NCBI GenBank assembly: GCA_963726255.1
Contig: CAVSBL010000002.1
Span: forward strand, 256,001-320,000
DNA from: Candidatus Bathyarchaeota archaeon
GTDB lineage: Archaea; Thermoproteota; Bathyarchaeia; 40CM-2-53-6
Length of the DNA stretch: 64,000 nt
Direction of reading: 5' to 3'
The translations under genes and the position numbers were made by a program. The notes below the pieces were generated by a model. It searched no databases, had not been told where the DNA came from, and saw nothing but the letters and a program-made list of their open reading frames with translations. Positions 10,772-11,133 of this stretch are shown here, one piece after another. Within the stretch, counting starts at the first letter, position 1, and each line of letters starts with the position of its first letter.

Positions 10772-11000
10772 TGGTGGGGCCGAAGGGATTCTCATGGTTC
10801 TGGGGTGAACCATTTTGAACCCTCGACTTCCGCCATGCCGTCATGTCTACGGGTTTCTTCGCTCCTGAAGTTCGTCATTCCGTTCAGGTCCGCAAACCCG
10901 TTAAGGTTTGGTCTTCTGGAGCCCTTGGCGGGAACGTGTCCCTGTCGTCATCCCTGGCTAGAGTCCGTCACTCCCACGTGGTCACTGTGTCTACGGCCCC
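10772..11000 (-). tRNA. trnW: tRNA-Trp(CCA) with five introns (10963-10990, 10925-10943, 10855-10915, 10828-10846, 10789-10813)
   Basis: Six exons join to GGGGCCG TA GTCT AGCCAGGGA TGAC G ACGGG CTCCAGA CCCGT AGGTC GAGGG TTCAAAT CCCTT CGGCCCC A CCA (77 nt); all stems pair; BHB or relaxed BHB motifs at the junctions. Confidence 0.9.
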
Positions 11001-11133
11001 ACATCGGAACCGACAGGGCGGCCCCAGCCCAGTCAGCATAGGTAGTTGCTATATGGATTTTGGCTACTTTCAGCCGATACGCGTAGCCCGTCAAGTAGTA
11101 ATACTGCTATGCAGGAACTCTGGCTGAAGGTTC

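Follow-up and report, generated by a model that had tools for sequence, protein, structure and literature searches.

Multi-intron tRNA genes were reportedly described from the Thermoproteales by Sugahara et al. in 2007/2008. According to the available text of the tRNAscan-SE 2.0 paper, archaeal tRNA genes contain up to three introns and the richest genome averages 1.54 introns per gene (PMC8450103). For Asgard archaea, the accessible part of a 2024 report gives 228 introns in three genomes (PMC11291895), and that of a bioRxiv preprint of October 2026 speaks of 'up to five in a single gene' (10.64898/2026.10.13.758758). Our searches of the literature found no paper on Bathyarchaeial tRNA introns, and a search for archaeal tRNAs with four or five introns returned only a paper on Cyanidioschyzon merolae (C. 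merolae), whose wording counts introns per region. Here we describe a tRNA-Trp gene in a 64,000-nt stretch of DNA (the window, meaning the whole stretch analysed) from Candidatus Bathyarchaeota archaeon (contig CAVSBL010000002.1, positions 256,001 to 320,000). An earlier note, made from the letters of the window, had read this gene as interrupted by five introns and had taken three to be the known maximum, in agreement with the tRNAscan-SE figure. We are confident that the locus is a genuine, single, functional tRNA-Trp(CCA) gene whose five bulge-helix-bulge (BHB) introns are removed by splicing. What is new is a five-intron tRNA gene at the known maximum, in a third lineage, that is conserved rather than sporadic; order-wide conservation, a box C/D-like intron 3 and a leader complementary to the tRNA 3' end go beyond the earlier note.

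A tRNA-Trp gene assembled from six exons

The gene lies on the minus strand at positions 10772-11000 of the window, where six exons (10, 19, 9, 8, 14 and 17 nt) alternate with five introns (28, 19, 61, 19 and 25 nt; Table 1). Re-cutting and joining the exons in silico yields a 77-mer that ARAGORN calls as tRNA-Trp(cca) across its full length, with an acceptor stem of 7 bp, all of them G-C, A73 and an encoded CCA. Coordinates and strand, the lengths of the exons and introns, and each of the five central BHB helices came out as had been proposed for the gene. The six exons are colinear, on the same strand and inside 229 nt; a split or permuted tRNA gene is ruled out, the exons lying neither on separate loci nor in permuted order. 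On the unspliced DNA of the window ARAGORN makes no call and Rfam gives no match at gathering threshold or at E<=10, and the locus is missing from the whole-genome RF00005 matches (E<=10) and from the one-intron calls of ARAGORN. That standard finders would miss the gene had been anticipated in the earlier note, and since their silence is expected for such a gene it is no argument against it.

Conservation in relatives carries the case. When the 229-nt locus was compared by BLAST with 40 relatives, the whole of it was found in 18 of 22 same-genus genomes (E<=1e-53, 85-98% identity), the four misses being genomes that are 67-83% complete. Twelve of 18 genomes from other genera or families of the order matched at E<=5e-13, some over shorter stretches, and near-full-length matches in sister families covered positions ~34-229 at 73-79% identity. 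The same five introns are present in all 14 same-genus genomes with a complete locus; in four more the locus is cut by contig ends. Within the genus the exons are invariant, and intron 1 varies in length (20-32 nt) and sequence with its helix kept. Two diverged five-intron copies, at G013:C21:4858-5090 (L006) and G013:C19:73417-73649 (L013), occur together in a single same-genus assembly (3.1 Mb, 7% contamination); they are more likely to come from two strains binned together than from duplication of the gene.

A pattern scan for exon 3, the intron 3 motif and exon 4, run over one genome per prokaryotic species, found at least 119 stretches, and nearly all of the matches listed are titled as Candidatus Bathyarchaeia or Bathyarchaeota metagenome-assembled genomes (MAGs). 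From 151 loci, 125 were kept, an ARAGORN Trp call being one criterion for keeping, and these represent 113 distinct genes; the other 26 were excluded for being truncated at a contig end, scoring below 100, drawing no Trp call, or having introns placed upstream of position 9 or downstream of position 70. The fixed-reference spliced aligner used here produces artefactual 5' 'introns' in divergent genes, and a six-intron parse that it gave for one locus (L103) was rejected in favor of five introns by eye. The earlier note had proposed surveying relatives for intron number, and the outcome was that one, two, three, four and five introns occur in 4, 41, 16, 20 and 32 (L103 included) of the 113 distinct Bathyarchaeial tRNA-Trp genes, a sample that is biased because every locus was found via this gene.

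Two five-intron layouts exist, 10-28-37-45-59 as in the window and 17-28-37-45-59, alongside layouts with one site less (28-37-45-59, 10-28-37-59, 10-28-37-45, 25-37-45 and 17-37-45). The 10/11 site is empty in L022, L025, L029 and L030, the 28/29 site in L032, L049 and L110, the 45/46 site in L031 and L065, and the 59/60 site in L032, L092 and L147. As every site is empty in some relative, each insertion is delimited independently of any motif. Four MAGs with bacterial titles (Limnocylindrales, Krumholzibacteriaceae, Methylomirabilota and Acidoferrum; L040, L055, L066 and L073) also carry a Bathyarchaeia-type tRNA-Trp, with all five introns in L066 and L073; these are probably mis-binned archaeal contigs.

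The comparative data bear directly on the possibility that the cloverleaf is a chance assembly, put together by five free deletions from a GC-rich intergenic region. Our multi-intron finder, when allowed up to six BHB-like jumps, gives many parses and several implausible genes, so that an assembled cloverleaf is weak evidence by itself and the case rests on the comparison with relatives; moreover, a relaxed BHB with at least 3/4 central pairs occurs at 14.9% of random exact boundaries in the window. However, a spliced alignment without any BHB term returns the same exons, with five identical insertions of identical lengths, and the empty-site alleles for all five introns, together with five introns in 32/113 genes, contradict an accidental assembly. 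Three of the introns have a canonical BHB at their exact boundaries, for which the per-site chance is 0.5%. The locus is indeed intergenic, occupying a 370-nt gap between a 369-aa open reading frame (ORF) without a Pfam match and an Obg-like GTPase gene, and the small ORFs that overlap it have no Pfam family match. We regard the chance explanation as almost certainly wrong.

In judging the splice sites we adopted the BHB geometry given in the accessible part of the 2026 preprint, in which the boundaries lie in two 3-nt bulges flanking a 4-bp central helix (H) with at least one outer helix (hBHBh', hBH or HBh'). Introns 1, 4 and 5 have a canonical BHB; introns 2 and 3 combine 3/4 central pairs with a 5-bp outer helix, which in intron 3 (helix h) reaches 5 bp only after the neighboring introns have been removed. 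Under a strict 4/4 rule three of the five would qualify. For 3/4 central pairs with a flank of at least 3 bp, the chance at random exact boundaries is 1.3%. Sliding without change of product is limited to 1 nt at intron 3 and at most 2 nt at intron 5, and introns 1, 2 and 4 cannot slide at all. Among distinct introns of relatives, H is 4/4 in 30/30 at the 10/11 site, in 30/30 at 17/17a and in 28/28 at 45/46. At 28/29 it is 4/4 (CGTC or CGTT) in 25/45 and 3/4 in 20/45, at 59/60 it is 4/4 in 21/34 and 3/4 in 12/34, and at 37/38 it is 4/4 in 18/104 and 3/4 in 86/104, with h = 5 in 102. Helix positions covary, as at the second pair of the intron 1 h' helix (A-T 16, G-C 7, T-A 3, C-G 1). Across the four non-canonical sites 85-99% of in-register cells are paired, compared with 16-57% after a 1-3-nt shift of the partner, and at 37/38 the values are 67% and 37-43%, the true register being slightly favored in these figures because boundaries were picked with a BHB bonus among equivalent placements.

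These data leave some room for a gene that is real but in which not all five insertions are EndA/BHB introns at the sites given here, those at 28/29 and 37/38 being perhaps shifted or removed by another route. The 3/4 central helices of introns 2 and 3 point that way, as do the h' of zero at intron 3, the predominance of 3/4 helices among its relatives (86/104), and the fact that GGAG, a perfect partner for C32-C35, is too distant from the intron 3 3' splice site to leave a 3-nt bulge. We nevertheless consider shifted sites improbable: the boundaries of intron 2 are fixed and relatives have a 4/4 helix there, a circular RNA contig (see below) puts the two cuts of intron 3 at the predicted sites, with a 1-nt ambiguity, and the available text of PMC4090602 states that (alpha-beta)2 enzymes accept relaxed hBH and HBh' motifs.

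The genome, a MAG that is 98.5% complete, yielded no second tRNA-Trp in four whole-genome searches, the absence of another copy being something that the earlier note had proposed to confirm: (i) ARAGORN with one intron allowed finds 35 tRNA genes, only 2 of them intronless and none of them Trp; (ii) RF00005 gives 32 matches at E<=10, with only 17 places above the cut-off; (iii) in 8-mer seeding with 11 mature Trp references, the next-best place covers 47/77 positions compared with 59 at this locus; and (iv) the multi-intron finder, a heuristic that combines T-loop seeds, an encoded CCA, acceptor pairing, cloverleaf constraints and BHB-gated jumps, has one Trp among its 45 full-length ARAGORN-validated solution rows and recovers the tRNA-Trp model described above. 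Tryptophan having one codon and the genome one tRNA-Trp gene, translation hinges on a 229-nt precursor being cut accurately ten times and ligated five times.

Transcripts of the locus and its third intron

Between 10% and 22% of the words sampled from a 501-nt stretch around the gene occur in each of twenty RNA runs (14 studies), and four of these runs (X1, X2, X4 and X5) were compared. X1 contains a 249-nt contig over 10772-11004, that is the whole gene, unspliced; X4 a 165-nt contig with a word depth of 563 over 10838-11002; and X5 a 163-nt contig over 10852-11014. All three precursor contigs end within 2-14 nt of the tRNA 5' end. The 90-nt contig of X2 is of another kind: it reads from 10882 to 10854 and then from 10914 to 10854, a permuted junction with a 1-nt A ambiguity. 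Because intron 3 and exon 4 each begin with A, this contig is intron 3 joined end to start and read 1.5 times. The relative in X2 has one base of intron 3 deleted, and the contig resembles a k=31 unitig of a 60-nt circle. The precursor is transcribed, and in a relative intron 3 is excised at the predicted sites, within the 1-nt ambiguity, and circularised; circularisation of excised archaeal tRNA introns is on record in the available part of PMC7994747. The earlier note had looked to spliced junctions in RNA as a check on the gene, and the contigs of relatives bear this out in one part only: the circular junction of intron 3 was recovered and a spliced exon junction was not. As no contig joins exons, we infer the removal of introns 1, 2, 4 and 5.

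Intron 3 is the best conserved of the five, and its plan, C'/D' motif included, is shared by 100/104 distinct 37/38 introns. Read 5' to 3', it consists of a variable part, an antisense element, CNGA, a short hairpin, RAUGANGA, six bases and GGAGC. The closing stem of the hairpin has at least 2 bp in 98 distinct introns and its third pair covaries. CNGA lies directly 5' of this stem with GA three bases 3' of it, which is the kink-turn (K-turn) geometry of a C'/D' pair. The antisense element upstream of D' forms 8/8 pairs in 79/100 distinct introns, and the fifth nucleotide from the box (N+5) faces nucleotide 39 in 96/100. GGAGC follows C' at exactly 6 nt in 100/100, and at least 9/10 spacer pairs are formed in 95/100. 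The spacer and target relation is thus that of a box C/D guide, with a complementary spacer of ~12 nt and a target nucleotide paired at the fifth position from D or D'. No box C was found in intron 3, nor any Rfam family match at E<=10, and the terminal D is only NNGA, with GA in the D-box register in only 34/100 distinct introns, the one in the window (AAGA) included; lacking box C, the intron falls outside strict membership of the box C/D guides. ATGACGA in exon 2 was considered as a box C and treated as a coincidence that D-stem pairing explains. Among the first 14 families, D' position 2 and C' position 5 seemed by eye to covary in Watson-Crick fashion, but this failed in the larger set, where the commonest combinations are G/A (37 of 100) and T/C (20 of 100).

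There is precedent for a tRNA-Trp intron acting as a guide. In Haloferax and other Euryarchaeota, the box C/D RNA of the tRNA-Trp intron has positions 34 and 39 as its two targets, as set out in the accessible parts of PMC4090602, PMC7994747 and PMC11408192. Since the same two positions appear to be targeted here, we lean, with modest conviction, towards regarding intron 3 as a reduced relative of the euryarchaeal guide. Both guide duplexes would bury a splice site, so that guide pairing and the BHB would be alternative folds. The pattern of exon 3, intron motif and exon 4 was also seen in contigs titled Hermodarchaeota, Nitrososphaeria, Geothermarchaeota and Thermoplasmata (L080, L089, L042 and L077), on several of which the aligner failed. 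A box C/D-like tRNA-Trp intron may be spread far more widely than the Euryarchaeota.

Given a guide-like intron, one could suppose that the locus serves mainly as host or precursor of the intron 3 RNA, or of some other stable RNA, and that the tRNA-Trp around it is a decaying relic. The abundance of unspliced RNA (X4), the detection of an intron circle but of no spliced product, and the superior conservation of intron 3 would all fit such a relic. Our reasons for holding this very unlikely are that within the genus the introns diverge by compensatory changes around invariant exons, that stems, A73 and CCA are all kept in the 113 distinct genes, and that no other tRNA-Trp was found in the genome. 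Modified tRNAs of 77 nt are, moreover, rarely recovered by standard RNA-seq and contig assembly.

Some observations do weigh against a functional five-intron gene: (i) the D stem of the spliced tRNA has a T13.T22 mismatch; (ii) introns 2 and 3 of the window each have a mismatch in the central helix; (iii) the most abundant RNA contig, that of X4, is unspliced through introns 1-3; (iv) the contigs of the four runs contain no exon-exon joint for any intron, which in assembled contigs is not evidence of absence; (v) the RNA data are assembled contigs of relatives (3-8 differences) rather than raw reads of this organism; (vi) for the Trp region the finder offers 17 alternative parses, and genome-wide some ten implausible multi-intron 'tRNAs'; (vii) the searches for a second tRNA-Trp have limited sensitivity, with ~20 tRNAs unresolved in the genome; and (viii) the genome is estimated to be 9.3% contaminated.

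Leader, endonuclease and a proposed order of splicing

The 5' leader of the gene contains an exact complement of the 3' end of the tRNA (Table 1). Throughout the intron-rich clade, leaders have a 7-11-nt exact complement of this end (acceptor strand and discriminator) 12-40 nt upstream of G1. The element of the window recurs in L002-L018, L021, L023, L031, L052, L054 and others. By class, such a complement is present in 23/29 genes with both the 10/11 and the 45/46 intron, in 2/2 with the 10/11 intron only and in 11/18 with the 45/46 intron only. In all, 36/49 genes with either intron have it, compared with 0/63 with neither and 20/2240 shuffled leaders, counts that overstate the link since the relatives are not independent. 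The adjacent segment CCCTGTCG keeps its CTGTC core in 13/16 same-genus leaders compared, and leaders of other families have a complement of the 3' part of exon 2 instead.

When the leader is included in RNAfold, it pairs with the 3' acceptor strand and G1-A9 enter the BHB of intron 1. The minimum free energy of the bare precursor is weakly better than that of shuffles (z -1.82), and with the leader z is -2.29. The leader may therefore hold the acceptor stem open so that the BHB of intron 1 can form. A TATA-like CCATATAGC is read directly ~50 nt upstream of G1 and, judging from its position, would start transcription near the leader element; the RNA contigs of the four runs begin 2-14 nt upstream of G1 and leave the leader element uncovered, which in contigs is not evidence of absence. 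A parse in which an upstream GGGGCCG copy serves as exon 1, followed by a sixth BHB intron, was rejected because C8 would replace U8 and the copy varies at positions 7-8 within the genus.

The genome is equipped for such splicing. It encodes two EndA paralogs, one of 188 aa and one of 187 aa, and in each of them the N-terminal and the catalytic domain (PF02778 and PF01974) are found. The regions G000:C2:748279-748530 and C2:1451759-1451998 hold the pair. The 188-aa protein matches PDB 3p1z_B, which we take to be the Aeropyrum pernix enzyme, end to end (E 8e-41), with the interdomain loop and the active-site His and Lys aligned; the 187-aa protein is divergent (best PDB match E 7e-15) and, when its translation is read by eye, has no His at the corresponding place. 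RtcB (571 bits) and an archaeal RNase P RNA are also present. By sequence, the EndA pair fits the (alpha-beta)2 heterotetrameric type, an assembly that the available text of PMC4090602 links to non-canonical and multiple introns. The expectation that a broad-specificity EndA would be needed is thereby matched by two paralogs of the fitting pattern and by RtcB.

We propose the following pathway as a working model. The tRNA-Trp(CCA) gene would be transcribed as a precursor of ~230-260 nt, its five introns would be cut at the BHB motifs by an (alpha-beta)2-type heterotetrameric endonuclease, the exons would be joined by RtcB and the leader trimmed by RNase P, the CCA end being encoded. The central helices of BHBs 1, 2 and 4 use nucleotides 5-8, 23-26 and 40-43, which are strands of the acceptor, D and anticodon stems, so that the precursor would have to adopt a fold other than the cloverleaf. 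Complements in the leader, of the 3' acceptor strand and then of the D arm and exon 2, could keep both stems open for BHBs 1 and 2. BHB 5 would be compatible with the T arm. BHB 3 requires the anticodon stem (27-31/39-43), which overlaps BHB 4 and is interrupted by intron 2, and would therefore form after introns 2 and 4 are gone. On this modelling, splicing is probably ordered, introns 1, 2, 4 and 5 leaving the open precursor first and intron 3 last. Precedent for such an order comes from a three-intron tRNA of C. merolae, whose peripheral introns were found experimentally to be removed before the 37/38 intron (PMC3728597). Before or after its excision, intron 3 would guide 2'-O-methylation of C39 and C34 and would persist as a circle.

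Table 1. Elements of the tRNA-Trp locus, with positions in the window
Element	Position	Strand	Description
Leader element TGGGGCCG	11019-11026	minus	19-26 nt upstream of G1; exact complement of tRNA positions 66-73
Leader segment CCCTGTCG	11011-11018	minus	complements the exon 2/intron 2 junction (CGAC/AGGG, slash marking the boundary)
Exon 1	11000-10991	minus	tRNA positions 1-10; invariant in all same-genus loci
Intron 1 (10/11)	10990-10963	minus	28 nt; H CCGT/ACGG 4/4, h' 3, h 2
Exon 2	10962-10944	minus	19 nt; tRNA positions 11-28
Intron 2 (28/29)	10943-10925	minus	19 nt; H GACG/CGCC 3/4 (A.C), h' 5
Exon 3	10924-10916	minus	tRNA positions 29-37; anticodon CCA
Intron 3 (37/38, canonical)	10915-10855	minus	61 nt; H CTCC/GAAG 3/4 (C34.A), h' 0, h 5 = anticodon stem
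Antisense element upstream of D'	10893-10901	minus	pairs last 2 intron nt and tRNA positions 38-43; fifth nt upstream of D' faces C39
Box D'-like CGGA (consensus CNGA)	10889-10892	minus	directly 5' of the 2-bp closing stem
Box C'-like AAUGACGA (consensus RAUGANGA)	10872-10879	minus	part of the C'/D' motif
Spacer	10860-10871	minus	12 nt; antisense to G31-G37 and first 3 intron nt; C34 at N+5 from the following AAGA
Exon 4	10854-10847	minus	tRNA positions 38-45
Intron 4 (45/46)	10846-10828	minus	19 nt; H CCGT/GCGG 4/4, h' 4
Exon 5	10827-10814	minus	tRNA positions 46-59
Intron 5 (59/60, T-loop)	10813-10789	minus	25 nt; full hBHBh', H TTCA/TGAG 4/4, h' 6, h 5 (T stem)
Exon 6	10788-10772	minus	tRNA positions 60-76 including A73 and encoded CCA

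Intron gain and comparison with known systems

The hexamer CCGTAG precedes intron 1 as well as intron 4, and the two have ends of the GCGGA or ACGGA type. Within one gene the two are identical at 16/17 nt in L023 (G031:C5) and at 75% of positions in L021 (G039:C1). This near-identical pair and the shared CCGTAG suggest, at the level of sequence, that intron 1 is a copy of intron 4 inserted at a look-alike site. Fujishima is said to have proposed intron transposition of this kind for the Thermoproteales in 2010.

The tRNA-Trp gene is not alone in its intron load. A conservative reading of the finder gives 26 plausible tRNA genes in this genome with at least 54 introns, ~2.1 per gene. Among them are a tRNA-Met (C2:42667-42814) with 4 introns and a tRNA-Lys(UUU) on the minus strand (G000:C2:1440515-1440704) with 4 BHB introns. 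The variable loop of the latter also holds a candidate 12-nt mini-intron (central helix CCCG/CGGG, 4/4), so that it is probably a second five-intron gene of the genome. Given the finder's alternative and implausible parses, its calls for tRNAs other than Trp are leads and not results. The five introns of tRNA-Trp had been presented as possibly record-level, a claim that is now weakened: with five introns in a single Asgard gene in the accessible part of the preprint (10.64898/2026.10.13.758758), and probably five in tRNA-Lys(UUU), the gene is no unique record.

A broader scenario joins several of these strands, namely an order-wide, Asgard-like fragmentation of tRNA genes (at least two introns per gene here, and two five-intron genes), at least three independent origins, and an obligatory, ordered, leader-assisted splicing in which the box C/D-bearing intron leaves last. 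Taken as a whole we hold it only tentatively, and would sooner expect one or another of its parts to fail than all to stand together.

Conservation of the gene across many Bathyarchaeia means that very high intron loads can stay stable over the long term and need not be merely a transient invasion. In practical terms, annotation pipelines will score these abundant archaea of sediments and soils as lacking tRNA-Trp and many other tRNAs, and tRNAs missed in this way distort completeness estimates and inferences from codon usage. Alleles with anything from one to five introns, the 16/17-identical intron pair included, offer a natural series for tRNA intron gain, and the precursor is a stringent natural substrate for work on EndA specificity and order of action.

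How, then, does the gene compare with those already described? Like the multi-intron tRNAs of Thermoproteales, it combines short BHB introns at canonical and non-canonical positions in one colinear gene, is accompanied by a two-paralog EndA, and has some BHBs that form only after a neighboring intron is removed. Unlike those, which reach a maximum of three, it has five introns, belongs to another class (Bathyarchaeia) and is conserved across an order rather than being species-specific. As in the C. merolae tRNAs, BHB-type introns occur in the D arm, at 37/38 and in the T loop, with a peripheral-first order that is predicted here; C. merolae, however, is a eukaryote with at most three introns per gene. 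With the tRNA-Trp intron of Euryarchaeota, as far as the available texts describe it, intron 3 shares a length of ~60 nt, the 37/38 site, antisense elements in which the fifth nucleotide from a D-type box faces positions 34 and 39, and an excised form that is circular, the euryarchaeal one being stable. It differs in having no recognisable box C, a degenerate terminal D and C rather than U at position 39, and in residing in a host gene with four further introns in a lineage of Thermoproteota. The nearest parallel in intron number is that of the Asgard archaea, where the accessible parts of PMC11291895 and of the preprint likewise describe some two introns for each tRNA gene, a large share of them non-canonical and in part overlooked by annotators, a maximum of five in one gene, and enrichment at BHB boundaries. 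The present case comes from another phylum, Bathyarchaeia being mentioned 0 times in the accessible part of the preprint, and adds to what is described for the Asgard archaea a named isoacceptor, an empty-site allele for each intron and RNA evidence for one excision.

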